DNA from: a virus
Strand: one strand, 5' to 3'
IMG/VR virus record: IMGVR_UViG_3300050343_000270
Location: 1 to 64,000 of that record
Length of the DNA stretch: 64,000 bases
In this document: in pieces, positions 22,853 through 44,602 of the stretch
Layout of the letters: each line of letters starts with the position of its first letter
How positions within the stretch are numbered: the first letter of the stretch is position 1
The notes under the pieces: model-generated
Databases searched by the model: none
What the model was told of the DNA's origin: nothing
The model's input: the letters and a program-made list of their open reading frames with translations, nothing else
Made by a program: the position numbers and the translations under genes

Positions 22853-22932
22853 GTAAGTCACTTAGTATCAACGAGTTACGCCCAAGAGGGGGGCGCTTCG
22901 CCGTAACTCATTGAGTATCAACGAGTTATGAC
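22853..22932. repeat. 80-bp double-palindrome element, copy 1 of 9
   Basis: Two TAA(G/C)TC-N13-GA(G/C)TTA sites 50 bp apart with a G-rich linker. Confidence 0.9.
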
Positions 22933-23114
22933 TATTTTTTTGTTAGAGTGTTAAACCAGAAAACCCCGCCCCCTGTGTTCTAACAGGAGACGGGGAAGCG
23001 CCACAGAAAAGATTTTTTAAAAAATGCTATTGTCTAACATGTTCGCTAAGAACAATTAGCATAGATAAAAAGATGCAAGCCATGATTGAATATATATCCA
23101 TTAGACTTGTTAGA

Positions 23115-23825: not shown

Positions 23826-23926
23826 GGCGGTATTGTAACAGAATTGCGAATGCACACAAGCTTTTTTAAATTATTTTTTAATCTTTTTTTTATCACTTTT
23901 TACTTGACAAGCGTGATCTGTTAGAT

Positions 23927-24505
23927 TTAGTTAGATTTGATCTGAGACGAAAGCCAGAGGTGATCAGTCAAAGCCTTTGCCTTCTTAAAAATTGGCGATA
24001 CAGATACAGTTGTGTCGAACCTGCGGTATTCTATGAGAGTAAGCAAAAACTTCTTTTCTTTTATGTAGGTCTTAGCGAACTTAGGGTCATTTTCGGTGAT
24101 GTCTCTTGTGTTAGATATGAGGTCGGCTAATTTAATGATTAGAGGAGTGTTACCTAGCGAAACAAGCCTCCAAGCCTCTGATTCTTTTCTTGCTTTTCTG
24201 TTCCAAGCAGGAAAGTTGGTTTTAGTGAATACATCTGTTAGATCAAGTATAACACTTGCATTAATTCTGCCAAACTTTTCCACCAATTTCTCGAAACTGT
24301 AGTCCGCATTAATCGGCGCAACATCTTCTAACACATCATGCCCCAAAGCTCCAATAGTGAAATCATCGCCATAGTAACCAAAAGACTGAAGAATCTCAAG
24401 AACTTCTTCTGTGTGAGTCCAGTAAGGAAAGCCAGTATACTTTCTTTTGTGGTTTATGGAGTCGTGTGCTTCCCTGAAGAAAGTTATTAATTGGTCGGTT
24501 GTCAT
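23927..24505 (-). CDS. HD-domain phosphohydrolase, RelA/SpoT hydrolase-like
   Basis: AH...RKYTG.PY..H...HDVLED...LTD...IKLADLISN. True start at 24505 after TATAAT-N6. Confidence 0.85.
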   Translation of the reverse strand: MTTDQLITFFREAHDSINHKRKYTGFPYWTHTEEVLEILQSFGYYGDDFTIGALGHDVLEDVAPINADYSFEKLVEKFGRINASVILDLTDVFTKTNFPAWNRKARKESEAWRLVSLGNTPLIIKLADLISNTRDITENDPKFAKTYIKEKKFLLTLIEYRRFDTTVSVSPIFKKAKALTDHLWLSSQIKSN

Positions 24506-24668
24506 GGCTGTATTATAGCGCAACGGAGGAGTGAAGCAACTGTTTTTTAATGTTTTTTTTGTGGAACAAAATGTTCCACGGAATAGTCGTAAGTCCTTCA
24601 TTATCAACGAGTTACGACGGTGCGGGGGGCGCTTCGCCGTAACTCGCTCTGTTTCAACGAGTTACGAC
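24506..24668 (-). promoter_or_regulatory. Cassette copy 2: sigma70 promoter + GTGGAAC-N5-GTTCCAC operator + double palindrome
   Basis: TTGCTT-N16-TATAAT on the minus strand; operator 24561-24579; element 24589-24668. Confidence 0.85.
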
Positions 24669-24683
24669 TATTATTACGATATT

Positions 24684-24959
24684 TTAGTGCTTTACCCTTT
24701 CGCACAGTTTGTGGCAACAGTACCCCTCTGCTTTCGCAACCATGTCTTGCCTCATCACCTCCATGTCTGCTTTGAGTTGTGGATCTTCTTTGCACATAAC
24801 GTCATACGATAGAGACGCGTCAACTAACTTATTGCCTTCTCTAACATATTCTTTTCCTAGATTAACTTCCAAGGTTTCGGGGTTGTAGTAAACGCGCATT
24901 AAGATAGGACTCCCCCCATCTTCGCACGGTATCAATTGATCTACTATATGTTTAGGCAT
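24684..24959 (-). CDS. Hypothetical protein
   Basis: 91-aa ORF in an early operon. Confidence 0.6.
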   Translation of the reverse strand: MPKHIVDQLIPCEDGGSPILMRVYYNPETLEVNLGKEYVREGNKLVDASLSYDVMCKEDPQLKADMEVMRQDMVAKAEGYCCHKLCERVKH

Positions 24960-24961
24960 TG

Positions 24962-25225
24962 TTAATCGTTGTTTAAAATGTTTATGATCTCCTCCGAGAT
25001 ACCCAGAACAGAAGCAATCCTCACATTCATTTCGAACGCTTGCGTTGCAGTGTCTTTTTGATCATCCTCAGATTTTACATATTGATTCCGATCATGAAAA
25101 GATTCATAAGGAAATTTGTCTAATGCATTTTTAAGGCTTGTGTGGAAGTCTACCCATTCTTTAATTAAGGATTCGCGACTATTTCCATTCATGTGTATTG
25201 CGGGGGCGATTTGGCGAGCGTTCAT
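24962..25225 (-). CDS. Hypothetical protein
   Basis: 87-aa ORF with TAAAAT-N6-ATG upstream. Confidence 0.6.
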   Translation of the reverse strand: MNARQIAPAIHMNGNSRESLIKEWVDFHTSLKNALDKFPYESFHDRNQYVKSEDDQKDTATQAFEMNVRIASVLGISEEIINILNND

Positions 25226-25249
25226 GGTGATATTTTAAGTGTTTAGGTG

Positions 25250-25615
25250 TTAACTGTCAAGATTTTTGGCGAAGATTTTATAACCTTTTTTATTCCCTTT
25301 GATGACGACTAAATCGGCGTGATGCACTGGATTAGATTCTGCGTCTACAAACGTTGGAGCTTTGTATGGATTATAGAAGATTTGATTTTTAGCGGTTGAG
25401 TAATCACGCCGCCCGTTGCATTCGCCCACGACAACAGCATGAACGTTTTTTTTCTTTTCTTTAAGGACTCGCTGTCTACCAGCTTCAGAAACTTTGAATT
25501 CCGCATTTGTTAGAACAACCTCTTCGGCGTAGCGCACAACCTTCCATACGCCATTGACTTTTTCTTGCAATGAGAGGCACCGCCGATGGAGGTTAAAGTA
25601 TATTCTCGTTTTCAT
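25250..25615 (-). CDS. Conserved phage hypothetical protein
   Basis: YFNLH...FKVSEAGRQRVLKEKKKNVHA...YNPYK pattern. Confidence 0.75.
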   Translation of the reverse strand: MKTRIYFNLHRRCLSLQEKVNGVWKVVRYAEEVVLTNAEFKVSEAGRQRVLKEKKKNVHAVVVGECNGRRDYSTAKNQIFYNPYKAPTFVDAESNPVHHADLVVIKGNKKGYKIFAKNLDS

Positions 25616-25622
25616 GTTTTAA

Positions 25623-25916
25623 TTAATCTGTTATAAAAACTTGCTTACCATCCACCTTCCAGAAACCCTTATTGCTTTGCTTCTTGGCATGTTTGATAAT
25701 GTTCTTTGCCGTGCCTCTAACATAAGAGTCTTCAGAGTCTGCAAATCGCCCAATTAGGCTGATCACCTTTTTAAGCTGTTGCTTTGAGGTAGATATAGAA
25801 AACCCGTTGCTGATTAGGTCACCATTGGCTATACCAACGGCTTCTAACATATCTTGATAGTCCGATGACTCCATAACCCTTTTGAGATATAGAACCCCCT
25901 GCTTTTGCTTTGTCAT
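25623..25916 (-). CDS. Hypothetical protein
   Basis: True start at 25916 (MTKQKQ) after TATAAT-N6. Confidence 0.65.
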   Translation of the reverse strand: MTKQKQGVLYLKRVMESSDYQDMLEAVGIANGDLISNGFSISTSKQQLKKVISLIGRFADSEDSYVRGTAKNIIKHAKKQSNKGFWKVDGKQVFITD

Positions 25917-26079
25917 GGCTGTATTATAGCGCAACGGAGGAGTGAAGCAACTGTTTTTTAATGTTTTTTTTGTGGAACAAAATGTTCCACGGAACCTCTG
26001 TAAGTCACTAAGTATCAACGAGTTACGACCGTGCGGGGGGCGCTTCGCCGTAACTCGCTCTGTTTCAACGAGTTATGAC
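25917..26079 (-). promoter_or_regulatory. Cassette copy 3: promoter + operator + double palindrome
   Basis: Promoter and operator identical to copy 2; element 26000-26079. Confidence 0.85.
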
Positions 26080-26198
26080 CATCAATGTTACTTCTTGTGT
26101 ATTAGTTCCCCGAAAAAATAGAAAAGAGAAACAATTAATATCATCGCTATTATGAATCCTACAACTTCTGTAATTATTGCCTCCATGATCTTATTATA

Positions 26199-26639
26199 TT
26201 AGAGTTCCTTAATGCGTATGAATTTTAATCTTCCTTCGTGTTTATAGCCACTTGAATCCATCCATGTAATAAAGCTGATACCTATACCACACACTCCGTC
26301 GATGATATCTTGTGTGTATTTAAGTTTGAACTGTTCATATTGTTCTTCTGTCAGGTCGCCATAATCAATATTACGTCTACGGTTTTTTGTTCGTTTCTTC
26401 GAATCTACAGCCTCATTAAATTCTTCCTCGCTAAGTTGTTTACCTTCGATGTACCATTCCTTATAGCCATTAGCATATTCGCAAGCAGGTCCATCTAGAC
26501 GGTGACGCTCACCATTTTGATACCAAGCCTTATATCCATCAACACCTTCAAAAGCAGGTCCATTTAGACGGTGACGCTCATCATTTTGAAACCATTCTCT
26601 AGTACCGTCGTCGTTTACTTTTACTTTATACTCTTGCAT
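26199..26639 (-). CDS. MORN-like repeat protein (HRLDGPA repeats)
   Basis: 22-aa repeats W.QN...HRL.GPA.E. Confidence 0.8.
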   Translation of the reverse strand: MQEYKVKVNDDGTREWFQNDERHRLNGPAFEGVDGYKAWYQNGERHRLDGPACEYANGYKEWYIEGKQLSEEEFNEAVDSKKRTKNRRRNIDYGDLTEEQYEQFKLKYTQDIIDGVCGIGISFITWMDSSGYKHEGRLKFIRIKEL

Positions 26640-26643
26640 AATC

Positions 26644-27162
26644 TTATTCCTTAATACGAAGTTTCTTTACATCGATGTTCATTGCTTTTGCTATATCCTC
26701 AAGAGTTACCTCGACTTTGTTATTTCTATTATTGAATTCTTCTTCAGTAAGTTTTATACCGTCAATATACCAAGCCTTATATCCATCAGCATCTTCAACA
26801 GCAGGTCCATCTAACCGATGAAGCTTATCATTTTGATGCCAATACTTATTTCCATTAGAACGTTCAACAGCAGGACCATCTAGACGGTGAAGCTCATCAT
26901 TTTGATACCATTCCTTATCACCATTAGCCAATTCAACAGCAGGTCCATCTTCACGATGAAGCTTTCCATTTTGATACCATGTCTTATTGCCATTAGAATT
27001 CTCAAAAGCAGGACCATCTAACCGATGAAGCTTATCATTTTGATACCAAGCCTTACTGCCATTAGAACGTTCAATAGCAGGTCCATCTAACCGATGAAGC
27101 TTATCATTTTGCCGCCACCACTTATCGCCGCTGTCTTTTACTTTTACTACGTACTCTTGCAT
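26644..27162 (-). CDS. MORN-like repeat protein (five LHRxDGPA repeats)
   Basis: 66-bp tandem repeats; true start MQEYVVK at 27162. Confidence 0.85.
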   Translation of the reverse strand: MQEYVVKVKDSGDKWWRQNDKLHRLDGPAIERSNGSKAWYQNDKLHRLDGPAFENSNGNKTWYQNGKLHREDGPAVELANGDKEWYQNDELHRLDGPAVERSNGNKYWHQNDKLHRLDGPAVEDADGYKAWYIDGIKLTEEEFNNRNNKVEVTLEDIAKAMNIDVKKLRIKE

Positions 27163-27195
27163 AATTTTTTTTGTTTTATCCCTTTCGGTAAGGAC

Positions 27196-27350
27196 ATTAT
27201 AGCGCAACGGAGGAGTGAAGCAACTGTTTTTTAATGTTTTTTTTGTGGAACAAAATGTTCCACGGAACCTCTGTAAGTCATTGAGCATCAACGAGTTACG
27301 ACGGCGCGGGGGGCGATTCGTCATAAGTCGTTAAGTATCAACGAGTTACG
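27196..27350 (-). promoter_or_regulatory. Cassette copy 4: promoter + operator + double palindrome
   Basis: Promoter identical to copies 2 and 3; element 27273-27350. Confidence 0.85.
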
Positions 27351-27584
27351 GATTAGAAAAGTCTACGTGCAAAACGTTTTTTTTATCCTCTTCGATTTCT
27401 AAACTAACAGATTCTATGAACCCCGCGAGCATTTGGGGATCTTTAAAAATCAAATCATTTAGAACTCCCTCTGGATATTCTTCATCTGTTAGAAACTCTC
27501 CTTCAACTGTAAATTTTACTATTTGTGTCACTAAATTGTTGCGCCCCCGAAGGGGCTTTGTTATTAGGCATTGACCTTGTTAGA

Positions 27585-27929
27585 TTAGAACCAGCACGAA
27601 TAGAAAACCTGCTTGCCCTCTCTCAAGGTATCATACGCATCAGAGATGAAAGAAAGAGTTTGTTCTTTTTTGTATTCATCATATCTCGAATCATTCCCAT
27701 AGAAAAATCCGTGTGTTTCTGGTAGCGCGTCATTAACGACAGCCGCTTCAAGCCTTTCGATGTCGCTCATATTCAGTTCAAGCTCTGAACAATTCCAATC
27801 GACGCTGTTTCCCTTGGTGCGCCATAGAGCCTCCATCCATCCGTCCAACGCATTGTGCTTGCGCCAACTTTGGATTTCGATGGTGTCCCCGTCTTGATTT
27901 CTTGTATATGCCCGTTGATCTAGTCCCAT
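27585..27929 (-). CDS. Conserved phage hypothetical protein
   Basis: MGLDQ...WRKHNAL.GWM...LP.T.GFFYG...FYSCW pattern. Confidence 0.75.
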   Translation of the reverse strand: MGLDQRAYTRNQDGDTIEIQSWRKHNALDGWMEALWRTKGNSVDWNCSELELNMSDIERLEAAVVNDALPETHGFFYGNDSRYDEYKKEQTLSFISDAYDTLREGKQVFYSCWF

Positions 27930-28000
27930 TTTATTGTTCCTTTCTTTTTAGTTGTTTGTTAGTTGTTAGTTTTTTTGGTTTTGTCCCTCTCGGTAAGGAC

Positions 28001-28164
28001 ATTATAGCGGAAATGGCGGAAAAAGCAAGAACCTTTTGCATGTTTATGCACTTTTTTTGTGGAACAAAATGTTCCACAGGATCGTCATAAGTCCCTAAGC
28101 GTCAACGAGTTACAACCGAGCGGCGGGGGCTTCGTCATAACTCGTTCTATTACAATGACTTACG
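28001..28164 (-). promoter_or_regulatory. Cassette copy 5: promoter + operator + double palindrome
   Basis: TTGCTT..TATAAT; operator 28059-28077; element 28087-28164; terminator-like hairpin 28207-28234. Confidence 0.8.
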
Positions 28165-28281
28165 TGGGTTATTTACGCTGTTAGAAACTGTTAGATTGGG
28201 GGTAAGAAAAACCCCCGCTGGTTGGCGGGGGAAAACTGTTAGGTTTATTACTTCCGTCTAGTGACGGGGATCTGTTAGCTG

Positions 28282-29046
28282 TCAAGCTGGGAGAACTAGA
28301 CCAGTCTCATTGTCAACTGTTAGGCTAGGCGAGTGATTCGCCAAGCGGTCAAAGTTGGATTGGATTGTCATTGTTCTCTGTGGCAACTTGGAAACGTCTG
28401 AACCCTTGAGCATCTCGGTGCAAGCGTTGTAGAGATTCCAGAGGTTGTTACCCTTGAACTCCTCATGGCGTGGAGCTTCAAACTCTTTGACAGTCTTGTA
28501 AACGTCGCGAGCAGAGAACCCCTTGGAGTCTACCAGATCAATCATCAAGTCAGCCGCTTGATTGCGCGTGATCTCAGTCTCTTGATACGCCGTGATGCGC
28601 TGTGCCATGTCAGACCAGTGAGAGGTGACGCGAGAAACAGCAGAAGATAACACGCGAGGCAAGTCTGTTAGGATTCGCGGAGTATGACGGCGAGCAAGTT
28701 TGATATCAGAGGAGAAACAAAGGTTATCACACACAAGCATCTGATTCCCGATGCAAATTGCGGAAGCAAAAGCCTTGTCATGGCTGTTACGGATTCCGAC
28801 AACTAGATTTCGGTCATCTGCTTGAATGTCCTTGCCAGTGATAGCGAAGCCGCCGAAGTAGCGAAGATCACCACGGGCTAGACCATGCTCCTCATGTGTG
28901 ATTTCTAAGCCAGCGCGATTAAGAGCCTTGCGTGTATAATCTACGAGCGTAGCGTGAGGAATTGGCGTGTGGGTGTCCGTTCCAGCAGGTGTGTTGAGGT
29001 TAGCAAGCTGGTCGGATTCGATGCGGTTTTTTGATAGTATTAACAT
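28282..29046 (-). CDS. DUF932-like protein
   Basis: THTPIPH...GIRNSHDK...VCDNLCF...RRHT...NLWNLYNA.TE.LK. Confidence 0.75.
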   Translation of the reverse strand: MLILSKNRIESDQLANLNTPAGTDTHTPIPHATLVDYTRKALNRAGLEITHEEHGLARGDLRYFGGFAITGKDIQADDRNLVVGIRNSHDKAFASAICIGNQMLVCDNLCFSSDIKLARRHTPRILTDLPRVLSSAVSRVTSHWSDMAQRITAYQETEITRNQAADLMIDLVDSKGFSARDVYKTVKEFEAPRHEEFKGNNLWNLYNACTEMLKGSDVSKLPQRTMTIQSNFDRLANHSPSLTVDNETGLVLPA

Positions 29047-29313
29047 GTTTTTTTTGTTTAGTTGGTTAAGCGTCTTTCGTGACTGCGGGGACATTATAAC
29101 CTAAAACATTTTCATAAGCAAGCTATTTTCGCATAAAAAACGATTTATTTTCACATGTTCCACGGAAATGTTCCACGCGCAAATCGACCTAACAACACCT
29201 GTTAGAGTGTCAAATACTCCCTAACAATGCCAGATATTTGGGTAAATAACCATTTGGAGTTTCTGTTAGTTTAAGTGGTTCAGTGTCAATGAGTTATGTG
29301 TTTGTAGATATAC

Positions 29314-29393
29314 GTAAGTCCTTCAGTATCAACGAGTTACGACGGTGCGGGGGGCGCTTCGCCGTAACTCGTTCAGTATCAACGAGTTATGAC
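29314..29393. repeat. 80-bp double-palindrome element, copy 6
   Basis: Matches the consensus; extra single site at 29271-29298; TGTTCCAC tandem at 29156-29176. Confidence 0.9.
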
Positions 29394-29476
29394 GATTTTT
29401 CTGTTAGAGTCTTGAGCAAAAAAACCCCGCCCCCCGATCTAACAGGGGACGAGGCTAACACTACTCCAGAAAACTG

Positions 29477-29749
29477 TTAGGCTACGACCTCGATTCCTGT
29501 TAGGTGCAACGTGCGGTATTTCTCCTGCGCGTTGTCGTCAATGTCAGTCGCTAAGACTTTAAGGCAACGTCTGCCATTTTTCTTGGCATGCCATACGTCT
29601 TCCACGGCGTGAATTTTAAAAGTGCGCTCCTTGTCTCTGCGCACAGTTGACTTCCCGTGGTTAATGTATCGCACAGTGCGATCTTTGAGAAGGTTTGCGA
29701 TCTCCAGAGCGGAGGCGGTTATATCTGTGTTTGTGTTTGCGATTTGCAT
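29477..29749 (-). CDS. Hypothetical protein
   Basis: TTGACT-N17-TACAAT-N6-ATG gives start MQIAN. Confidence 0.6.
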   Translation of the reverse strand: MQIANTNTDITASALEIANLLKDRTVRYINHGKSTVRRDKERTFKIHAVEDVWHAKKNGRRCLKVLATDIDDNAQEKYRTLHLTGIEVVA

Positions 29750-29851
29750 GGTTGTATTGTAGTTGGTTTTTTCGGTTGAGTCAATCCCTTTTTTTCGGAT
29801 TGTAAGATTATTTAGTGCTTTTAAAACGTCCATTTGTTTTATGTGTTTGTG

Positions 29852-30019
29852 TTATTCTGGCACGATTGCCATTACATGCTCGATAGAGAAGCCGATTTCT
29901 TCTCCGTCCTCAGTCGTTCCCCAGAATGGGCGGTGAGGGTTATTTTCTACAACTTCGTCAACGATGACACAAGCTCCATTCACGATCACTTCTGTGCCGA
30001 TTTTGATTTGTTCTTTCAT
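29852..30019 (-). CDS. 55-aa hypothetical protein (paralogue of 33650..33844; not in the ORF track)
   Basis: MKEQIKIGTEVIVNGACVIVDEV...FWGTTEDGEEIGFSIEHVMAIVPE. Confidence 0.65.
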   Translation of the reverse strand: MKEQIKIGTEVIVNGACVIVDEVVENNPHRPFWGTTEDGEEIGFSIEHVMAIVPE

Positions 30020-30162
30020 AACTGTTGTAATTTTGATGGGTTAACTTCTTCTTCTCCGACTTGCTCACTCTCGATAACGACATTGCCGTTGTCAAGAATC
30101 TCAACAACTTGAACGTTGTCGCCGTCGAACCTAAACCACTGATTAATCTCTATCTTCATCAT
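30016..30162 (-). CDS. 48-aa hypothetical protein (not in the ORF track)
   Basis: TATAAT-N6-ATG; ATGA overlap with the next gene. Confidence 0.6.
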   Translation of the reverse strand: MMKIEINQWFRFDGDNVQVVEILDNGNVVIESEQVGEEEVNPSKLQQL

Positions 30163-30255
30163 GCATATATTATAGTAGAAAACTGGATTTTTACAAGCTA
30201 TTTCGACATTAAAAACGCTTTTTTTTTACTTTTTAACTCATTCATTATCAACGAC

Positions 30256-30774
30256 TTAGAATTGTTCCACAGAATTGTTCCACAGAGATAGCTCGAATTT
30301 GCGTCTTTTCACTAATCCTTTGCGTATTTTTCCCCCCGCCATGCGATACATAGGCATTACTTCAGAAACGCTCTTATAGTTTCCATCGTTTAAACGTCCC
30401 TCTTGAGAAACAAGCTGATAGAGTGCGCCCCTTCCGCAGTTGTATGTGAAACTTGTTAGAGCGGCGAGTTGGTAATCTGTTAGAGGCACTTTAACAATAG
30501 AAAGAACTGTTTTTTTGTATTCGTGTAATTCATTTTCTAACAACTCGAAAGCCTCCCGCTCGGAGATGAAACCTTTTGAAACTGCTTTTCCTGTGTGACC
30601 ATATCCAATTGTTAGTTTTCCGCCGCAACACACATACGCCTTGGCTCTGAATCCCTCGAAATGTTTAATGCCTTGCGTCATGTGATACCAAGGCACGTTA
30701 GGTTTTACTAACAGAGCATTGTTAGAAGCCAAGGCTGGGGTGATGAAAAGCGCGAACAGTATTATAATTTTCAT
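30256..30774 (-). CDS. GH24 phage lysozyme with N-terminal signal peptide
   Basis: FEG.R..AY..GKLTIGYGHT...ALTSFTYNCG...GLVKRR..E; N-terminus MKIIILFALFITPALA. Confidence 0.88.
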   Translation of the reverse strand: MKIIILFALFITPALASNNALLVKPNVPWYHMTQGIKHFEGFRAKAYVCCGGKLTIGYGHTGKAVSKGFISEREAFELLENELHEYKKTVLSIVKVPLTDYQLAALTSFTYNCGRGALYQLVSQEGRLNDGNYKSVSEVMPMYRMAGGKIRKGLVKRRKFELSLWNNSVEQF

Positions 30775-30780
30775 GGTGTA

Positions 30781-30936
30781 ATTATACTCTAACAGATGGG
30801 CTTTGGCTAGCATTTATTTTTCTTTTTTTGTGGAACAAAATGTTCCACGGAATAGTCATAAGTCCTTCATTATCAACGAGTTACGACGATGCGGCGGGGG
30901 CTTCGCCATAAGTCGTTCATTATCAACGAGTTACGA
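30781..30936 (-). promoter_or_regulatory. Cassette copy 7: promoter + operator + double palindrome
   Basis: TATAAT-N6-ATG; operator 30830-30848; element 30858-30936. Confidence 0.85.
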
Positions 30937-30955
30937 TTGCTTTTTTATTGAATTA

Positions 30956-31036
30956 TGGTGGAGCATAGGGGAATCGAACCCCTGTCCGCGATCACTGGGT
31001 TATACCCTATCACTCACGTCTAAACCTGTATGCCCC
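30956..31036 (-). ncRNA. Minimal tmRNA-like RNA (tRNA-like domain only, 81 nt)
   Basis: GGGGCAT/ATGCTCC-ACCA acceptor stem with G3.U wobble; stemless D-loop ACAGGTTTAGAC; GGAC-AGGGG-TTCGATT-CCCCT T-arm; no tag ORF between them. Confidence 0.8.
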
Positions 31037-31042
31037 GTAATC

Positions 31043-31190
31043 ACCTTCATACTCTCTCGGATACACACGGGAATCTTTATACCCGTCCAATGGAGTCACC
31101 CATAGTTAACACAACCAGTTTCCGTGACTAAATGGAAGTTTACTTGTGCGGCAAGTTTACTGCTTAATGCACCTGAGAAAGTATGTAGGT
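31043..31190 (-). ncRNA. Candidate rod-shaped structured RNA (6S-like?)
   Basis: ~22-bp closing stem ACCTACATACTTTCTCAGGTGCAT/GTGTATCCGAGAGAGTATGAAGGT, a central bubble and an inner AGTCAC/GTGACT stem. Confidence 0.5.
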
Positions 31191-31199
31191 TTTAAATTG

Positions 31200-31421
31200 T
31201 TAGTTGTTAGAAAGGGCGACCTCGGCTTTGTAGTTTTCTTCGTCGATGCGCTCAAGCTCCTCAAGCTCTTCTATCTCTTCGTTCAGATTTTTCAGTTCTT
31301 GCTGTGCTTGGAAAACATCGAAATTTATTTTCCATGAAGCAGAACCGCCATTATTGAATTCATCTATTTGAAAGTCGAGGCGAGCGGCGCGTTGCTTTTT
31401 GCTAAGTAGTGTTTCAGTCAT
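31200..31421 (-). CDS. Hypothetical coiled-coil protein
   Basis: TACAAT-N6-ATG start. Confidence 0.6.
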   Translation of the reverse strand: MTETLLSKKQRAARLDFQIDEFNNGGSASWKINFDVFQAQQELKNLNEEIEELEELERIDEENYKAEVALSNN

Positions 31422-31427
31422 GGGCAT

Positions 31428-31592
31428 ATTGTACCAAAAAAGAGCGAAACCGCAAGAACTTTCTGCATGTTTTTTAACTTTTTTTGTGGAACAAAATGTT
31501 CCACGGAATAGTCATAAGTCCTTCATTATCAACGAGTTACGACGGTGCGGCGGGGGCTTCGCCGTAACTCGTTCAGTATCAATGAGTTATGA
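31428..31592 (-). promoter_or_regulatory. Cassette copy 8: promoter + operator + double palindrome
   Basis: Operator 31486-31504; element 31514-31592. Confidence 0.85.
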
Positions 31593-31802
31593 TTGTTAGA
31601 AGCTGTTAGATACATATCAGAGTTCCTTAGTATTCAGTTTTTCCCATCGTTCGATTTTTATGCCTAACCGTTCGATTTTAGCACCCAGCGTTGAAGCCTT
31701 GATCATCAGCCTCTTCAGTCTCCAACAATTGATATTGTTTATTAGGTTTTTCATTTTGTAGTGTGGTGTTTCGTATCTCATACTATTATTATATTAGAGT
31801 TC

Positions 31803-32668
31803 CTAAAGATATTCTTTCACATATCCGCGAGCATCATCTAAATGCTCTGCATCATCAAGTTCGTTGAGAATTGCAAGCTTGATCTTCTCAACCATTTCAG
31901 GAAGGTCTGATTTGCTGAACTCTAAATGCTCCATACCCTCGCAATAGTCAAGGATAATGTTTTTAATCTTATTCTTTTCGTTCATATCTTATTATATTAG
32001 TGTTTCGCAAGCTGTCTTTTTCTCACTTGCTTGGATTCATTATAGTATAATTCTCAGAAAGCGCAAGGATTATTTCGCCCTTTTATCACTTTGTCAGTTC
32101 TCCCAAGGAAATTTAGTTACGCTCGCCTCACTCCACCCGTCGATAAGACCACGCGCCCACTCAGCTTCTTCTCGCGCTTCGTTCCTTTCGCGTTCAAGTC
32201 TTTCAACATCTTCAAGCTTTAACGACTTATCATTTTCTTTTTTAAGGCGGCGAATCTCTTGAATGAGCATATTCATTTCATCAATGAAGTCGTCAACTCC
32301 TGACATTTTGTCACCGTAAACATCGGTTACAGTTCCATCGTTGCAGTTGTATTCGTAGTTGTGGGCGGTGAATTCGTTTTTCATACCTAATTATATTAGT
32401 GTTTCAATTAGTCTACAACTTCCTCTGTCAATTCGGTGGTAACCACCTTAGTTAATTTGACGACTTCTACTTTTTCGTTAGGGATGATTACCTGAACTCC
32501 ATGACCTAAAACATAGGTATATTTGTCATTCTTGTATGGTGTTTTGGTCTTGTTAGTAATCTCTTCTCCAACATCGATTGTGCGTTCCACGCCATGCCAT
32601 TTGAACGTGTGTTGTTCGCGCATGCGGTGCATGTAGTTTGTGGTAGTTTTTCTGTTAGTGTTTTTCAT
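31803..32668 (-). other. Three small hypothetical genes (31803-31985, 32094-32384, 32408-32668)
   Basis: Co-oriented ORFs; a ~95-bp promoter/leader is duplicated at ~31997-32092 and ~32681-32777. Confidence 0.6.
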
Positions 32669-32722
32669 AGTAGTATTTTTTTAGTGTTTCGCAAGCTGTC
32701 TTTTTCTCACTTGCTTGGCTAT

Positions 32723-32889
32723 ATTATAGTATAATTTTCAGAAACCGCAAGGATTATTTCGCCCTTTTATCACTTTTTTTTGTGGAACAAAATGTTCCAC
32801 GGAGACTCTGTAACTCGTTCATTATCAACGACTTATGACGGTGCGGCGGGGGCATCGTTGTAACTCGTTCAGTATCAACGACTTATGAC
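32723..32889 (-). promoter_or_regulatory. Cassette copy 9: promoter + operator + double palindrome
   Basis: Operator 32782-32800; element 32810-32889; terminator-like hairpin 32915-32952. Confidence 0.85.
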
Positions 32890-32992
32890 GATTTTTCTGT
32901 TAGAGTTTTGAGCCAAAAAAGCCCCGCCTCCCACACTACTAGGAGACGAGGCTAACACTACTGCACTATGAAAGCTGTTAGATTGTTAGATG

Positions 32993-35366: not shown

Positions 35367-36215
35367 TCATTTTTGTTTATTGTTTTGTGTAAGTTTGCTG
35401 ATGTGGTGTCCGATGTGGTCACCTTTGTGGTCGCCGACTTGGTCGCCTTCGTGGTAGCCGATGTGGTCGCCGTCGTGGCGTCCGATATGGTCGCCCCAGT
35501 GGTAGCCGATGTGGTTGCCCCAGTGGCTACCTTCGTGGTCGCCGTAGTGGAGTCCTTCGTGGTCGCCGTGGTGGTTGCCGATGTGGTCGCCTTCATGGTC
35601 GCCTTTGTGTCTGCCTTTGTGGTCACCATCGTGGCTTCCAATGTGGTCGCCTTCGTGGTAGCCGATATGGTCGCCCCAGTGGTAGCCTTTGTGGTCTCCG
35701 TTGTTGTAGCCGATATGGTCGCCTACGTGGTCGCCGATGTGGTCGCCGTAGTGGAGTCCTTCGTGGTCGCCGTGGTGGTTGCCGTAGTGGTTACCCTCGT
35801 GTTTACCTTCGTGCTTGCCAATGTGGTTTCCGTAGTGGTCGCCCCAGTGGATGCCTTCGTGGATGCCGTAGTGGCTTCCTTTGTGTTTGCCGTAGTGGTC
35901 GCCGTAGTGGCTTCCTTTGTGGTCGCCGTGGTGGTTGCCGTAGTGGCTTCCTTTGTGGTCACCTTTGTGGTCACCTTTGTGGTTGCCTCCGTGGTCGCCG
36001 TCGTGGTCCCAGTGGTTTCCGTAGTGGTTTCCGACATGGTCGCCGTAGTGGCATCCGTAGTGGTCGCCGTAGTGGAGTCCTTCGCGGTTGCCGTAGTGGT
36101 TGCCTATGTGGTTGCCTATCAGGTCAGTTTTCAACTTTGTTAAGACTAGCTTTCCGTCTTCGTCATATCCAAACGACGCAACCTCTGATATTTCTTTTAG
36201 TGTTGGTTCTTTCAT
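35367..36215 (-). CDS. His/Gly-rich tetrapeptide (G-x-H-x) repeat protein
   Basis: About 60 consecutive 12-bp GxHx units between short unique termini. Confidence 0.8.
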   Translation of the reverse strand: MKEPTLKEISEVASFGYDEDGKLVLTKLKTDLIGNHIGNHYGNREGLHYGDHYGCHYGDHVGNHYGNHWDHDGDHGGNHKGDHKGDHKGSHYGNHHGDHKGSHYGDHYGKHKGSHYGIHEGIHWGDHYGNHIGKHEGKHEGNHYGNHHGDHEGLHYGDHIGDHVGDHIGYNNGDHKGYHWGDHIGYHEGDHIGSHDGDHKGRHKGDHEGDHIGNHHGDHEGLHYGDHEGSHWGNHIGYHWGDHIGRHDGDHIGYHEGDQVGDHKGDHIGHHISKLTQNNKQK

Positions 36216-36730
36216 TTTATTTTTAGTTGTTTTTAGTTTATTTTAGTTTATTTTAATTTTGCCTATTTTGGCTCTAACACTGCGAAGCTCTTTTTTTAGA
36301 ATGCCTATGATAACCCCCACCGAGGCATCCTCCATTTCTTTAACTAAGTCTTCATTATCGACCCAGACCCTTTTTTCCCCAAGGTAGGCAGGTGTAGTGG
36401 TGTAGAGGTGGATTCCGCGATTCTGAGATTTTTATGATTTGTCTAGATATCGAGTCACGGTAATCTCTTAAATCAATAAGAGATTCTATTTTTTAGTTGC
36501 CTTTTGTTTGCGAAGCTCTTTTGCCTATTTTTTTCATGTCTTCATTATCTTTTTTCCTTCCGCGGTGGACTAGATATCGAGCAAATCTCTATCAGAAAAT
36601 AGCAATCTAGTTTTTAGTATTGGTTAAATTATCGAACAAGCCGAAGCATTTCCTTGGTGGACGTGCAAACTATCAGAAAATAGCGTGAATGTCAATAATT
36701 ATTTTAATTCTTCTCATCTTGGCGCGATAG

Positions 36731-36952
36731 CTATGGTTTCTTTTGGTATTTCATTGAAGCCTCCCAGCAATCCTCAAGTTCTTTACTGAAACGTTCCTGC
36801 TCCTCCTCCGTAAATGGTTCTGGTCCGTCGTCCATATAACTGTTAGCCAAATCTGCGGCACAATTATCGCAAAGGCATTCATAGCCTGCGCCGAGGACGA
36901 AAGCACCACATCTGCGGCAGGTGTCTGGTTCTGAGATTGTGTCTTCGTTCAT
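36731..36952 (-). CDS. Small Zn-finger-like protein
   Basis: CRRC...CDNC. Confidence 0.6.
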   Translation of the reverse strand: MNEDTISEPDTCRRCGAFVLGAGYECLCDNCAADLANSYMDDGPEPFTEEEQERFSKELEDCWEASMKYQKKP

Positions 36953-37019
36953 GTTGTTTTTAGTTGGGCGGTTGAGCTATACGTTCTGCTTAAAATGAAT
37001 GCGGTAGTATTGGTAATAA

Positions 37020-37190
37020 TCATTTTATATATTTAAGGGATTTTTTAGCGTGGTGCATCATCGCCCCTATCTCTCCATTCCTGCACGCCCTACGCAACTC
37101 GCTCTCGTGGTATTCAATAAAAAACAACCGAACAAGGCATTGTATCCAACGCCATGCATCGTTGGAGGGTTTAATTAAAAGTTTTTTCAT
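37020..37190 (-). CDS. 56-aa cassette protein starting inside an attC loop (not in the ORF track)
   Basis: MKKLLIKPSNDAWRWIQCLVRLFF...; reads through the left arm. Confidence 0.55.
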   Translation of the reverse strand: MKKLLIKPSNDAWRWIQCLVRLFFIEYHESELRRACRNGEIGAMMHHAKKSLKYIK

Positions 37191-37203
37191 GGCGTGGATA
37201 AAT

Positions 37204-37410
37204 TTAGACGTTCTCCGAAGATGAAATAGCGTGTCGCCATGTCACATCGGTCAGACCATGATGGATTATTTCGAGCGGGTAGTCGCCAAGTGTGCCGAGA
37301 TTGGCGCGGAGCACTCCGCCCTTCCAGTAGACCGCGACCCACTCGGGCTTGTAATCGTTTTCCATGCATCGCAAGTAGTAGCCTCCCGTTTTTATGTCTT
37401 TAAGTTCCAT
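37204..37410 (-). CDS. Hypothetical cassette protein
   Basis: Ends ENV* inside an attC right arm. Confidence 0.6.
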   Translation of the reverse strand: MELKDIKTGGYYLRCMENDYKPEWVAVYWKGGVLRANLGTLGDYPLEIIHHGLTDVTWRHAISSSENV

Positions 37411-37487
37411 GTTGTTGATTATTTTAAGTCATTGATTGTTTTTAGTTGTGCCACCGTTTAGACGGGGCGGCTGTTCTTAGCGTTCGC

Positions 37488-37715
37488 CTAATCATTTCTA
37501 AATGCGCTCCACCGCTCTCCGTCATCTAGGTAGTCGTCCATCTGGCAGGACTTTAAGAACTCTCGGTCAATTACCAAGACATCCTCACGGTCGAGCCATA
37601 GAATGTAGGCGTTGTCTTCCTCTGCGATTCGCTCAAGGCTTTTGCCTTTGTGTTTCCCAAACTCAAGAACAAACTCGGGCGAACAAGGCGTTGAAATCAA
37701 TTTCGTTTCACTCAT
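37488..37715 (-). CDS. Cassette protein with FGKHKG (DUF3820-like) motif
   Basis: LEFGKHKGKSL..I...D..YILWL; starts in an attC loop. Confidence 0.7.
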   Translation of the reverse strand: MSETKLISTPCSPEFVLEFGKHKGKSLERIAEEDNAYILWLDREDVLVIDREFLKSCQMDDYLDDGERWSAFRND

Positions 37716-37930
37716 GATTTAACTTGGTCGTTATCCAAGGAATATTTCACAGGTCCAGTCATGTCCCAAACGCTATCGAAGGGGTTGCCATCTGCCTCTT
37801 TCTCCCACCTCTCAAGCGTCTTCTTGGCTTTCGTCTCGCTACTGAATACGTGCGCCCCGTCGAGAGGGTCAAAGAGCACCCATAAGGCTCTGACCGCTTT
37901 TCGTGTTCTTATTTGTGTTTTTACGCTCAT
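37712..37930 (-). CDS. Hypothetical cassette protein
   Basis: Ends DNDQVKS* through an attC right arm; ATGA overlap with the next gene. Confidence 0.65.
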   Translation of the reverse strand: MSVKTQIRTRKAVRALWVLFDPLDGAHVFSSETKAKKTLERWEKEADGNPFDSVWDMTGPVKYSLDNDQVKS

Positions 37931-37968
37931 AATAAAAAATGGATAACAAGGCGATGCACGGGCAACGG

Positions 37969-38409
37969 CTACGCCGTGCCGTGATCTTGGTCGTTATCTC
38001 TATATGCATTTAAGGCTTCAATCACCCACGCCTCGAACTTGTCTTGAGCTTCACACGCTGAATCGTTGCTCATCGCTAGCCCTCCACCTCGCCCCGTCAG
38101 ATATCCCCACGCTCTCACGTCGAGCACGTTGGTATCTCCGCATTTGGTTCTGATGAATATCTTCCCCATGCTCCCGACACCGTAGAATTTACCATCAAAT
38201 TCACTAGGGAGAGAACAAGGCGAAACATCCGACAGCTTGCCGCTTGGTTTGGTTTCTGTGTTATCTTTTCCTGTGCCGTTGCATTTATGGCAGTCGGTTC
38301 TCCCTCCTCCACCAAAACCTTCAAGCTCGCCCAATCCATCGCAAAGGGAACAAGGCGAAGCATCCGACGGCTTGCCGCTTGGTTTGGTTTCTGTTTTATC
38401 TTTTTTCAT
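37969..38409 (-). CDS. Fused cassette protein with DnaJ-type CxxCxGxG zinc finger
   Basis: CSLCDGLG...CHKCNGTG; duplicated TETKPSGK.SD.SPCSL; ends DNDQDHGTA* at the attC apex. Confidence 0.65.
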   Translation of the reverse strand: MKKDKTETKPSGKPSDASPCSLCDGLGELEGFGGGGRTDCHKCNGTGKDNTETKPSGKLSDVSPCSLPSEFDGKFYGVGSMGKIFIRTKCGDTNVLDVRAWGYLTGRGGGLAMSNDSACEAQDKFEAWVIEALNAYRDNDQDHGTA

Positions 38410-38424
38410 GTCAATAATTTGTGT

Positions 38425-39132
38425 TTAACTTTCGCGGTTATCAACGGCTTCGCCGTGACATCGCTGATTGTTCGCTTCAAAACAATGGTTGAGATAGCCG
38501 ATTGCGAGACAAGCGGCATGTTCAGCCTGTTCCAGTGTGGTCTTGCTGGGGGCTTTCGTCCATATCGCCTCGTTAAGAGCCAATTTTAACTCAACCCAAT
38601 CGGGATCTTCGGAAAGCGAACAAGCCGAAGCATCCGACCCTTCACCGTTAATAGTTGTTTTTTCTTTTTCTTTGTGCATGTCAATAATTTGTTTTAACAT
38701 AGAATCCCTTGGATACCATCGGACTACATAATGCGCATGCACCATTGACCCGTCAGCGTTTCCTACCACCTTCTCGCAAATGCCGCGAAAAACTACGCGA
38801 CCATTAGAAAGCCGCCTCATCCTTCTCTTTCTAATCTTTCCGTCATAGTCCTCTGTCCATATTGGTTCTCCAAAAATAAGGCTAACAAGGCGCTTCATCC
38901 GACCGTTAACCGTTCCTGAGTTGGTTTCGTTTTCTTTTGTGTTCATAAGTTTTCTGGCATCTAAGCAAATATTGCAAATTGACCCGCAACATTCTTGTTT
39001 AACAATCACTTTAACGTGCCGTCCTGTCCCTGCCTCGGTCAACATTTCGTCGTTGATTGACTTGCATACATCACAGCTAACAAGCCGCTGGACATCAATG
39101 CCCACTTCAGCGGGCGTTTCTTGTGTTTTCAT
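38425..39132 (-). CDS. In-frame fusion of three cassette genes
   Basis: Three attC left-arm peptides (DVQRLVS, RMKRLVS, SDASACS), each preceded by its own ATG. Confidence 0.55.
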   Translation of the reverse strand: MKTQETPAEVGIDVQRLVSCDVCKSINDEMLTEAGTGRHVKVIVKQECCGSICNICLDARKLMNTKENETNSGTVNGRMKRLVSLIFGEPIWTEDYDGKIRKRRMRRLSNGRVVFRGICEKVVGNADGSMVHAHYVVRWYPRDSMLKQIIDMHKEKEKTTINGEGSDASACSLSEDPDWVELKLALNEAIWTKAPSKTTLEQAEHAACLAIGYLNHCFEANNQRCHGEAVDNRES

Positions 39133-39490
39133 GTTGTTTCTGTGTTGTTTCTGTGATTCCAAACGGTTCCATTGAAGTCATAAACCTTTCTAGCAGTTCG
39201 TCGGATCTCCATGCCACTGCGCACAAGTGGTAAACCGCCTCTTCCTTATCGCCTCTCATGTAAGCCTCCTCAAAATCGATGAGGTGTCGGCATATTTGGT
39301 TGCCATCGCCAATGCTGGCATCGACATCCCAAACCATACCCTCGTCCCCAGAATGTTTTAGGTTTGAGTTGTAAGAGTGGATGGATTTGGCGACATGTGC
39401 ATTGGGAAAGTATCTTGTGATATAGTGTAGTACGCGAGCTTTGTTTCTTTCGCTGTCTTCGCGTGGAAGAATTGTATTTTTTGACTGCAT
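39107..39490 (-). CDS. dATP/dGTP diphosphohydrolase-like protein (DUF5664)
   Basis: YFPNA...KH...W...ICRHL...HL.AVAWR pattern. Confidence 0.65.
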   Translation of the reverse strand: MQSKNTILPREDSERNKARVLHYITRYFPNAHVAKSIHSYNSNLKHSGDEGMVWDVDASIGDGNQICRHLIDFEEAYMRGDKEEAVYHLCAVAWRSDELLERFMTSMEPFGITETTQKQHENTRNAR

Positions 39491-39616
39491 GTGATATAAG
39501 ATAGCGCAAATTGATTCAAATGTCAACATGATTTATAAAAAAAAACAACAATAAATTAAAATACAAAAATTTGAATAAAAAATAGATTTTTAGGTGTAAT
39601 TATTTTAACATTTTTT

Positions 39617-39970
39617 ATGAATAAAATTTTCTGTGTATCATGTGGAACTAAAAACGTCTACGAAACAACTAAGCCTAAATTTTGTGCTAATTGTGGGGAG
39701 GCGATTTCTGGAGTATCTCAAGCAACTCAAAAGACTTCAGATGAGGTCGAAGAGGTGTCTGTGAGTAGTATTGATTTAGATGGTCTAAAGAGGGGCATTG
39801 GAGTTCAGTATAACAAATCTGTAACTAAAATTGAAGATGTTTTCGGAAAAGGGGCGGATGGATCTGCTAGCAGACGCGCTCCTAGTAATTTACCAAGTGG
39901 TAAAGACATCATCAAGCACAACATGCAAGATTGTGCGCAAGCCTCAAGATCAAAAGATATTAATGAATAA
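39617..39970 (+). CDS. Zinc-ribbon protein
   Basis: FCVSCG...PKFCANCG. Confidence 0.7.
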   Translation: MNKIFCVSCGTKNVYETTKPKFCANCGEAISGVSQATQKTSDEVEEVSVSSIDLDGLKRGIGVQYNKSVTKIEDVFGKGADGSASRRAPSNLPSGKDIIKHNMQDCAQASRSKDINE

Positions 39971-42703: not shown

Positions 42704-44602
42704 GTGGCTTGGGATAAAGGAAAACAGCGTTATAGATATGAGTATTCAGCGACGAAAATCAACGAGAAATTGTTGGCTATTGAAGGGGATATGAAAGAAG
42801 AGGAGGCGAAATATCAACTGTATCGTTTTTTACGAAACAATGTTGGTTATACTTGCGAACTCTTTCTTGGGGTTAGATTATTTCCGTTTCAGGAAATGGC
42901 GATAAAATCTATGATGATCGGAGATTACTCGATGTTCGTCTTTTCTCGTGGTTTATCAAAGACTTTCTCAACAGCCATCTATGTTATTTTAGAATGCTTA
43001 TTGAATCCTAGCGCAAATATTGGTGTTATTGCTGGGACATTCCGTCAGTCCAAACAAATATTTTCAAAGATTGAAGATATCATGGCAAAGCCCGAAGCGG
43101 CTATGGCGCGAGAGTCTGGATACAAGCTTTCCAAAGGAACAGATGCATGGACAATGAAGATTGGTAAAAACAAAGCAATTGCTTTACCCTTGGCTAACGG
43201 GGAGAGACTTCGTGGTTTTCGTTTTAATCGTATTGTGCTTGACGAGTTCCTAACCATACCAGAAAAGATTTTCACCGAAGTTATTTTGCCGTTTCTCGGT
43301 GTTGTTGAAAACCCTACGGAAAGGGAAGAGATTTACGATATAGAGAGTATGTTGATTGACTCTGGAGAAATGAAAGAGTCTGACAGGCATGTTTGGTCCA
43401 ATAACAAACTAATCATTCTATCATCGCCAAGTTTCAAGTTCGAATACATGTATAAATTATACTGTAAATACCGAGACCTTATCAGCGGCGTATACGAGAG
43501 TGCCGACGAAGAAGATGACGAGGACGCGGCGGATGATGCTTATCGTATTATTATGCAGTTAAGTTATGACTGTGCGCCGAATACACTTTATGATAAAAAC
43601 CTTTTGAAGCAAGCTAAATCAACAATGAGCGAAATGCAGTTCGAGCGAGAGTTTGGTGGTCAGTTCGTGGATGAGAGTGATGGTTATTTTCGTTTATCTA
43701 AGATGATGAAATGCACTATTCCTGATGGCGAATACCCTGCGGCAGAAGTGGTGGGTAATCCTAAAGATCAATACATACTATCATTTGACCCTAACTGGGC
43801 TGGAAATACAAGCGCCGACCACTTTGCTATGCACGTGTTTAAGCTATTGCCTGACTCCAAGAAGTCTTGCTTAGTCCACAGTTATGCAATCGCGGGAGTT
43901 TCTCTAAAAGACCACATGAGGTATTTTCATTATATATTAACTCATTTTAATATCGTGGGTATCTGCGGTGACTATAACGGAGGGGTTCAGTTTATCGACA
44001 GTTGTAACGAAAGTGAATTATTCAAATCGTCAAATATCAATATTGGAGTAATAGGAATGGATATTGACAAATCAGAAGAATATAATGACAACATGGTCAA
44101 GCTTAAAAATGAATATAATATTAGTGGTAGAAAATATTGTATTCTAAGGAAGCCCACATCTCAGTGGATTCGTTCAGGAAACGAACTACTTCAAGCAAAT
44201 ATTGACCACCAGAAAATTCTATTTGGGGCTAGATCGGTAGATGACCACTTTGACGCTCAAAGAAAAAAGAAACTTCCCATTACTCAGATAAAATGGGACA
44301 TGAATATGTTGGGTAGCAACAATTCTGCTAAGATGATCGACTTCATAGACCACCAAAAAACCATAATCGAACTTACAAAGTCAGAATGTGCAAATATTGA
44401 AGTTAAGAGCAACCCCCAAGGTAGCCAATCTTTCGATTTACCCCAAAATCTTAAGAGAGCAACTGGTCCCAACAGAGCGCGAAAAGACTCCTATTCCGCA
44501 CTAGTTCTAGGAAATTGGTTTATCAAACTATACTACGACATGAATGAAGCAAAAGATAAACCCAAACCTGTTAACGACTTCATTCCAAGAATCATAAAGT
44601 AA
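42704..44602 (+). CDS. terL: Terminase large subunit
   Basis: LFPFQ Q-motif, SRGLSKT Walker A, LRG.R...VLDE Walker B, SFDP nuclease Asp, KDSYSA. Confidence 0.92.
   Translation: MAWDKGKQRYRYEYSATKINEKLLAIEGDMKEEEAKYQLYRFLRNNVGYTCELFLGVRLFPFQEMAIKSMMIGDYSMFVFSRGLSKTFSTAIYVILECLLNPSANIGVIAGTFRQSKQIFSKIEDIMAKPEAAMARESGYKLSKGTDAWTMKIGKNKAIALPLANGERLRGFRFNRIVLDEFLTIPEKIFTEVILPFLGVVENPTEREEIYDIESMLIDSGEMKESDRHVWSNNKLIILSSPSFKFEYMYKLYCKYRDLISGVYESADEEDDEDAADDAYRIIMQLSYDCAPNTLYDKNLLKQAKSTMSEMQFEREFGGQFVDESDGYFRLSKMMKCTIPDGEYPAAEVVGNPKDQYILSFDPNWAGNTSADHFAMHVFKLLPDSKKSCLVHSYAIAGVSLKDHMRYFHYILTHFNIVGICGDYNGGVQFIDSCNESELFKSSNINIGVIGMDIDKSEEYNDNMVKLKNEYNISGRKYCILRKPTSQWIRSGNELLQANIDHQKILFGARSVDDHFDAQRKKKLPITQIKWDMNMLGSNNSAKMIDFIDHQKTIIELTKSECANIEVKSNPQGSQSFDLPQNLKRATGPNRARKDSYSALVLGNWFIKLYYDMNEAKDKPKPVNDFIPRIIK

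Follow-up and report, generated by a model that had tools for sequence, protein, structure and literature searches.

The window analyzed here is the first 64 kb (64,000 nucleotides) of IMG/VR record IMGVR_UViG_3300050343_000270, a genome of about 114 kb from an uncultured marine phage. Its subject is a dense run of very small genes and integron-type recombination sites (attC) between positions 36631 and 39132. We conclude that this run is probably a genuine integron-type cassette array without an integrase, which forms part of the leftward early operon, exchanges its units at G|TT and is served by a recombinase acting in trans. Three attC sites supported by a covariance model lie within 873 bp with no intI nearby, in agreement with the IntegronFinder definition of a cluster of attC sites lacking integron integrases (CALIN; at least two close attC sites, no intI in the vicinity). 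The array is not a complete integron (intI, attI and Pc), as no intI was found in the window or in the 26 related marine contigs that we obtained by DNA pattern scans of IMG/VR and of Joint Genome Institute (JGI) metagenomes.

Anatomy and conservation of the attC sites

The sequence-only reading of this stretch had described three complete sites of canonical attC anatomy, and the sequences and coordinates that it quoted are all correct. A strict scanner, which accepts NNNNAAC, 5 nt, an 8-nt L'' whose position 4 is an extra base, a 7-nt L' that pairs with it perfectly, then 6 nt and GTTNNNN, at a total length of 50–150 nt, recovers exactly these three sites on the plus strand: site 1 at 37127–37216 (90 nt; ACCGAAC-AAGGC-ATT[G]TATC...GATAAAT-TTAGAC-GTTCTCC), site 2 at 37678–37736 (59 nt) and site 3 at 37941–37999 (59 nt). 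Each has the AAC (R'') and GTT (R') core triplets in inverted orientation at the ends of an imperfect palindrome within the attC size range of about 55–140 nt, the unpaired spacers of 5 and 6 nt, and the L''(8)/L'(7) helix with its extra base at position 4. On bacterial arrays adjacent to IntI genes (n=22), the same scanner produced 42 matches on the expected top strand versus 1 on the opposite strand, indicating that the geometry in question is true attC geometry and is strand-specific. The phage spacers (AAGGC or AAAGC ... TTGGTC) are also present in several bacterial sites. Furthermore, the window contains 16 copies of the motif AACAAGSC (shuffles: mean 4.4, maximum 10), and nine of these copies, all on the plus strand, are clustered at 36635–39086.

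The three sites are also the best window hits of R1, a covariance model of our own that was trained only on 17 short bacterial attC sites, all beside IntI genes; our integron sources were the arrays next to 22 intI genes and two class 1 integrons. Searching both strands of the window with filters off, R1 scores 37941–37999 at 30.8 bits (E=2.3e-5) and 37678–37736 at 24.5 bits (E=8.7e-4), while default filters return 37127–37216 over its whole length at 33.1 bits (E=1.9e-5). Eight further matches, at 22–35 bits, were made in the 26 related contigs. For comparison, bacterial sites outside the training 17 score 18–71 bits, and the two attC sites of phage PH101 that IntI1 recombines score 19.3 and 18.5 bits; the window sites thus fit the IntI-substrate model better than phage sites already proven with IntI1. 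An Rfam search of 33–42 kb returned no relevant family and no attC match.

Comparative analysis of 12 phage sites aligned to R1 points to a conserved structure. Pairing extends to 95.4% of cells versus 70.5% in shuffles, with the caveat that an alignment fitted to the R1 model favors the structure somewhat. The value falls to 26–43% when the partners are slid by 1–3 columns, and 10 of the 13 stem pairs show changes on both sides. We rely on this comparative structure rather than on folding energies, since single-strand folding is significant only for the segment 37936–38004 (z=-3.3), and most sites fold no better than shuffled sequence. All 10 phage sites aligned at the second extra base have an A there, in the context CA[A]C/T, and the 17 bacterial sites share this A without exception. 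It lies on the same arm as the first extra base, in most sites at a spacing of N6. The phage sites form a homogeneous sub-family; on the bottom strand their extra bases correspond to T-N6-C, an efficient IntI1 substrate type (PMC3053210).

Resemblance by chance in phage DNA of mixed AT and GC content might be suspected, given that the core boxes are short and that the scanner made one stray match in the window, at 54938 on the minus strand. However, shuffled windows yield only 0.4 matches each, and about 10 unrelated matches were found in 2.16 Mb of other viral loci. In unrelated viral contigs totaling 1.10 Mb, R1 has no hit with E<=10, and the sites are conserved and covary across the 26 contigs. 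Chance is rejected by the shuffles, the model controls, the covariation and the matching of cassette ends described below, and we regard its probability as negligible.

Cassette ends and exchange between phages

In the mechanism that we propose, each unit would be a very small gene body with a GTTnnnn box on one side and the complementary nnnnAAC on the other, and an attC site would come after it. Site-specific recombination at G|TT between attC sites folded as single strands would add, remove or exchange such units, presumably by way of circular cassette intermediates. The pairs of reverse-complementary R' and R'' boxes on which the sequence-only reading had based its proposal, at 37482/37678, 37730/37941 and 38470/38615, are all present. 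The same relationship extends well beyond the window: among 78 NNNNAACAAGNC sites in the window array and the 26 related contigs (27 sequences), 39 have an exact GTT plus complement 40–900 nt upstream, whereas an equal downstream control gives 4 of 78, roughly the rate expected by chance. The matching ends draw on more than a dozen 4-base words, including CGCC, ATCC, CGCT, CTGC, CGAT, AGCT, ATGC, CGGC and CTCT.

Comparison of related phage contigs revealed cassette replacement at the G|TT of R', as had been predicted for relatives of this phage. Positions 5009–5260 of contig L084 match window positions 37482–37733 at 99.6% identity, from the G of GTTCGCC to GTTA, and the sequence beyond this match differs at either end. 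The cassette that follows in L084 likewise has complementary ends, GTTAGCT and AGCTAAC. The cassette concerned, which we call cassette C, is 99.6–100% identical in L084, L326 and L305 amid other flanks. In an all-against-all comparison, homology blocks begin at position 0 or +1 of an R' GTT at 10 of their 45 internal left boundaries, and 30 of the 53 right boundaries are at +2 to +8. The right flank of contig L275 belongs to the same backbone as the window (982 bp, 99.9% identical to 38619–39600), and its array of about 13 cassettes has only three or four in common with the window. One of these is a homologue of the window's cassette D (78.6% identity) that carries a different attC site in which the L''/L' pair has covaried. 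The carriers include lambda-like phages, with a GpA terminase, a lambda-type portal and ClpP, that are unrelated to the phage of the window.

Metagenomes provide a view of the wider population. A 3.2-kb stretch is present in 20 marine or seawater runs from 16 studies, and depth was taken from the assembled contigs of four of these runs, in which uncovered parts carry no meaning. The phage backbone has a depth of about 43, 8, 5 and 3 in the four runs. Cassette C (37488–37735) reaches 1200–1290, 163–263 and 17–24 in three of them, about 30-fold its flanks, and the site modules reach 400–1080; cassette and site modules stand at 10–30 times the backbone. The most abundant module is a composite site at 38345–38476. 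Contigs and loose ends break at 37482, 37945, 38476 and 38617, and the joints 38469 to 37482 (common GTTCGC) and 37733 to 38614 match the arrangements in L084 and L326. The depth of the cassettes, far above that of the backbone, indicates that they live in many more genomes than this phage. It is a serious possibility, which we nevertheless hold as tentative, that unrelated marine phages share a pool of inverted mini-cassettes of 30–90 codons, in which a 5' attC acts as a portable start and leader, and that host IntIs traffic these cassettes during infection.

Two features of the runs are recorded here in their own right. Run X16, which contains 64% of the words of the stretch, is cataloged under the name of an organism and not as a metagenome; a host culture or a sample associated with the host may be its source. 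In contigs of runs X14, X16 and X20, 154 bases at 36494–36649 are replaced by a different stretch of 36 nt, and the left edge of the array is thus polymorphic.

Searches outside the related contigs returned little. The array has no match by megablast or blastn among 50,697 isolated phages. The motif cluster is absent from 80 relatives identified through the neighboring sigma-like gene (57–61% identity), which serve as negative controls only. A scan of viral contigs with the CATGTCAATAATTNNTTT pattern gave matches that were almost all at chance level. In 185,579 bacterial genomes the hairpin pattern has at least 120 matches, of which, among the matches listed, none extends past the 19 nt of the pattern, and no bacterial carrier or host emerged from them.

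Inverted genes and the layout of the array

The genes of the array are antisense to their sites, as the sequence-only reading had stated: the window's open reading frames (ORFs) lie on the minus strand, opposite to the attC top strand. The arrangement normal for cassettes, an ORF in sense orientation with attC at its 3' end, was not found here. Of 31 distinct phage cassettes, 30 have an antisense frame that stays open over at least 95% of the body (bodies measure 92–275 bp in the window and related contigs), whereas all 16 bacterial control cassettes have their longer open frame in the same sense as the attC top strand.

Because the gene is antisense to the attC top strand, the site lies at its 5' end, where it would serve as 5' untranslated region or provide the start codon and a short leader peptide; often it would also provide the stop codon of the gene upstream. 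A cassette that brings its own translation start could thus be expressed wherever it lands in the operon. Cassette C offers the clearest case of a start within a site. Its 75-aa protein contains no Met between residue 1 and residue 59, so its gene needs a start inside the attC site, and an ATG is present in the attC loop at 37713–37715. The cassette D gene starts about 10 nt beyond R''. Some genes read through R' and stop in the attC site of the neighbor, ending in ..DN|DQVKS* or ..DN|DQDHGTA*. Long composite sites, of about 130 nt, encode a leader peptide of about 20 aa, MKKDKTETKPSGKPSDASPCS, and carry a TTGACA box and a conserved hairpin; short sites have neither. Where R' halves have been lost, modules are fused in frame, as in the 146-aa ORF at 37969–38409 and the 235-aa frame at 38425–39132.

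A related arrangement was observed in contig L095, which carries the right half of attC site 2 (L''-loop-L'-R') at 5341–5383 on the minus strand, 100% identical over 43 nt and missing R''. There the leader MSETKLIST meets a stop, and the ATG of the next gene follows 5 nt later, suggesting that the leader is a separable module.

Read from left to right on the plus strand, the array begins at 36631–36707 with an R''-type box, ATCGAAC, followed by AAGCC and a leader start; fused to this end is a conserved module, which L082, L114, L137 and L275 carry as well. A cassette-like gene follows on the minus strand, a Cys-rich 73-aa ORF at 36731–36952 with a 92.7% identical counterpart in metagenome contig L231. 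Beyond site 1, the next cassette has a 68-aa ORF at 37204–37410 (minus strand), and its own site at 37453–37488 retains only the hairpin and the R' box. Cassette C occupies 37482–37736, with R' GTTCGCC, its body, and site 2, whose R'' is GGCGAAC; its antisense ORF at 37488–37715 contains an ExoX-like_C domain (Pfam E=1.4e-8). Cassette D, at 37730–37999, has R' GTTATCC, its body, and site 3 with R'' GGATAAC (fold z=-3.3); its antisense ORF at 37712–37930 stops inside the neighboring attC site.

The right part of the array is more composite. Cassette E (37993–38216, plus strand) pairs R' GTTATCT with a degenerate R'', AGAGAAC, in place of which L081 and L275 have the exact complement AGATAAC. 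The 146-aa ORF on the minus strand is an in-frame fusion of cassette E, a Met-less leader, a CxxCxGxG zinc-finger cassette and a second leader. The long composite site at 38345–38476 (plus strand) consists of an R''-type box, AAGGC, the leader, an ATG at 38407–38409, the hairpin ACGGC-TTC-GCCGT and R' GTTCGCT. In cassette F, at 38470–38621 (plus strand), a body of 138 bp lies between R' GTTCGCT and the cassette's own R'', AGCGAAC. Finally, 38615–39132 holds three partial sites on the plus strand, with R''-type boxes at 38615, 38880 and 39075 and no R' halves; this segment is 99.9% identical in L275. The 235-aa minus-strand frame spans these partial sites and comprises three leader-plus-body modules.

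The array lies within the first 3 kb of the leftward early operon. Early genes run on the minus strand from about 39.5 kb down to 22.5 kb, and they diverge from the plus-strand late genes at 39530–39617. The window is identified as phage DNA by a T4-like large terminase of type Terminase_6N at 42791–44602 and a tape-measure protein at 59821–63249, together with lysozyme, RuvB-like and RNA-ligase genes. With an identity of only about 25% to Bacillus phages, the large terminase supports neither a cultured relative nor a host assignment.

Other parts of the window show features of separate interest. A second family of repeats, about 85 nt long and unrelated to the attC-type sites, lies between early genes at 22853–32897, with copies near 22853, 24587, 25995, 27268, 29313, 30874, 31512 and 32860. 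It is 74–82% identical to upstream regions in related phages L010, L012, L015, L022, L045 and L049. Next to the array, at 35367–36215 on the minus strand, a 282-aa protein is composed almost wholly of about 55 tandem tetrapeptides G-(D/N/S/K)-H-x (HYGD, HKGD, HIGN and others) encoded by 12-nt DNA repeats. The protein falls into neither a Pfam nor a PHROG family; a role as a histidine-rich metal binder or as a decoy is conceivable. At 13583–14647 on the plus strand, an RNA-ligase domain protein weakly matches a BEN domain in its C-terminal part, an unusual pairing.

Source of the recombinase and relation to known systems

Several observations count against the interpretation of this region as an integron-type array. 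Complete canonical attC sites account for only three of about nine sites in the window, a point that the sequence-only reading had not seen; the remainder are truncated or are long composites in which a second hairpin accompanies a leader peptide and a start codon. The consensus RYYYAAC/GTTRRRY fits only in its triplets: the R' boxes are mostly GTTC... or GTTAT... (GTTCTCC, GTTATCC, GTTATCT, GTTCGCC and GTTCGCT) and the R'' boxes are ACCGAAC, GGCGAAC and GGATAAC. The bacterial control R' boxes are mostly GTTAGGC-like, and GTTCGGC and GTTATAC also occur among them. Strict conservation of the attC core holds for the triplets only. The first extra base on the top strand is G in 12 of 12 phage sites, as opposed to C30/G6/A4/T2 in the bacterial controls (n=42); changing this base from G to C carries a recombination cost of at most 2.7-fold (PMC2727003). 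Single-strand fold energies are unremarkable in most sites. Some junctions also lie off GTT: those of L081 and L275 with the window fall inside the conserved R''/leader segment, at 38210–38233 and 38615–38640, and others fall between AAGGCG and TTGAAAT (L095) or after TTTAAC (38700). These junctions suggest additional homologous or illegitimate recombination between repeats, as in the promoter early stem loops (PeSLs) of T4-type phages (PMC2839356, PMC4122927).

The absence of an integrase near the array, which the sequence-only reading had asserted, also belongs with these points. Within this genome the recombinase searches were confined to the 64 kb of the window, where no PF00589 or IntI match was found. 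PF00589 is absent from the 47 window ORFs, from 44 ORFs of at least 130 aa in seven array-bearing contigs, and from three whole records of related viruses, of which one has a completeness of 90%. A tblastn search of the window and the 26 contigs with IntI1 and two Marinobacter IntIs gave only noise (best E=0.37).

The hairpins might instead be chiefly regulatory elements of the early operon, acting in intercistronic termination, processing or translation start much as PeSLs do. The repeats would then recombine homologously or illegitimately to shuffle the genes, and any resemblance to attC would be a relic or a convergence. The missing recombinase and the breakpoints that lie off GTT, in the 25-nt conserved R''/leader segment or at TTTAAC, would suit such an account. 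So would the overlap of the sites with stop and start codons, their leader peptides, the TTGACA box and conserved hairpin of the long composite sites, and the documented precedent of PeSL-mediated shuffling (PMC2839356, PMC4122927). However, it leaves unexplained why each body is flanked by its own four-base complement next to GTT/AAC (39 versus 4), why the boundaries of homology blocks accumulate at the G of GTT, and why spacers, extra bases and N6 spacing match those of IntI substrates. Early promoters in the composite sites are unsupported, as a consensus scan found 6 sites versus 5.9 expected, and terminators also show no excess. We consider a purely regulatory origin quite unlikely.

A different possibility retains the same sites and mechanism but assigns them to a non-IntI tyrosine recombinase, such as a short Xer-like enzyme, supplied by the phage itself or by a co-infecting element. 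Its gene might lie in the remaining ~50 kb of the genome or have been lost from these lineages. The homogeneity of the site sub-family (top-strand G in 12 of 12, CA[A]C in 10 of 10) suggests one dedicated partner enzyme, and the deviation of R' from GTTRRRY points the same way. Against this stand the PF00589 searches of the three whole records and of the seven array contigs, as well as the better fit of the window sites to the IntI-substrate model compared with phage sites already known to be recombined by IntI1. We judge this possibility unlikely.

We thus favor an integron-type array whose recombinase is provided in trans, since none is encoded nearby, and would most probably be a host integron integrase. 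The earlier proposal of cassette shuffling by a borrowed IntI is supported in its first part by the covariance model and the G|TT breakpoints, two of the three grounds on which that reading could have been refuted; the borrowing of IntI is inferred from absence. A host IntI is the simplest source, as IntI1 recombines comparable phage sites (PMC9892861) and as the integron integrase family TIGR02249 is present in 147 of 401 gammaproteobacterial genomes sampled (37%), a tally that counts four unpublished genomes (G047, G149, G304 and G316) from which no sequence was used.

The finding is less novel than the sequence-only reading assumed. In 2023, Qi et al. (PMC9892861) described virulent phages whose attC clusters lack an integrase and are recombined by IntI1 in vitro. 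Phage-borne clusters have been reported only as rarities, 17 in 10,705 phage genomes (PMC9892861). The present array resembles those of Pseudoalteromonas phage PH101 (H101) and Polaribacter phage P12002L: no intI accompanies the canonical attC sites, the carrier is a lytic-type marine phage, the genes are small and of unknown function, and the partner enzyme is presumed to be a host IntI. In the PH101 genome (NC_029094; our L496/L499), R1 places the two IntI1-validated attC sites at 76529–76585 and 77931–77987 on the plus strand, and the 12 annotated neighbors are all on the minus strand. The PH101 sites are thus antisense like those of the window, but they lie in intergenic DNA. An antisense layout may be general in lytic phages.

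Compared with PH101 and P12002L, the array described here is denser, with about nine sites in 2.5 kb and about 13 cassettes in L275, and its cassettes are far smaller. Its sites overlap coding sequence and provide start codons and leaders, and in natural populations its units are exchanged at G|TT between unrelated phage backbones. The portion of PMC9892861 available contains no mention of antisense orientation, or of the density, size, overlap or exchange points seen here.

Sedentary chromosomal integrons, such as the Vibrio cholerae repeat (VCR) arrays of Vibrio, also hold many small cassettes of unknown function with closely related attC sites, and they show the same per-cassette R'/R'' complementarity and exchange at G|TT. 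Their cassettes, however, are sense-oriented, measure 350–1400 bp and lie beside intI, attI and Pc, whereas those of the phage are antisense, have bodies of 92–275 bp and are found with neither intI nor attI. The T4-type PeSLs resemble the array in that repeated intergenic stem-loops flank variable early ORFans and that genes are gained, lost or replaced at the repeats (PMC2839356, PMC4122927). They differ in relying on homologous recombination of a promoter-terminator repeat and in having no AAC/GTT core, extra-base geometry or cassette-specific complementarity of ends. What is new here is the presence of canonical attC sites in abundant uncultured marine phages with natural exchange at G|TT across unrelated backbones, together with a systematic inverted layout in which attC forms a 5' start or leader module of very small cassettes.

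Integrons are regarded as bacterial devices, and here the same recombination grammar organizes early accessory genes of abundant uncultured marine phages. The inverted layout implies that attC can be co-opted as a 5' expression module, which is relevant to the unsolved problem of cassette creation. If a host integrase acts on these sites, phages and integrons, two major engines of gene flux, become linked, and a mechanism would be at hand for the origin and turnover of phage ORFans and of likely counter-defense genes. If unrelated phages do share a common pool of cassettes, much of their early ORFan content would be an integron-style library of genes whose expression is independent of position, IntIs would routinely act on the DNA of lytic phages, and phages would rank among the main stores and carriers of cassettes.

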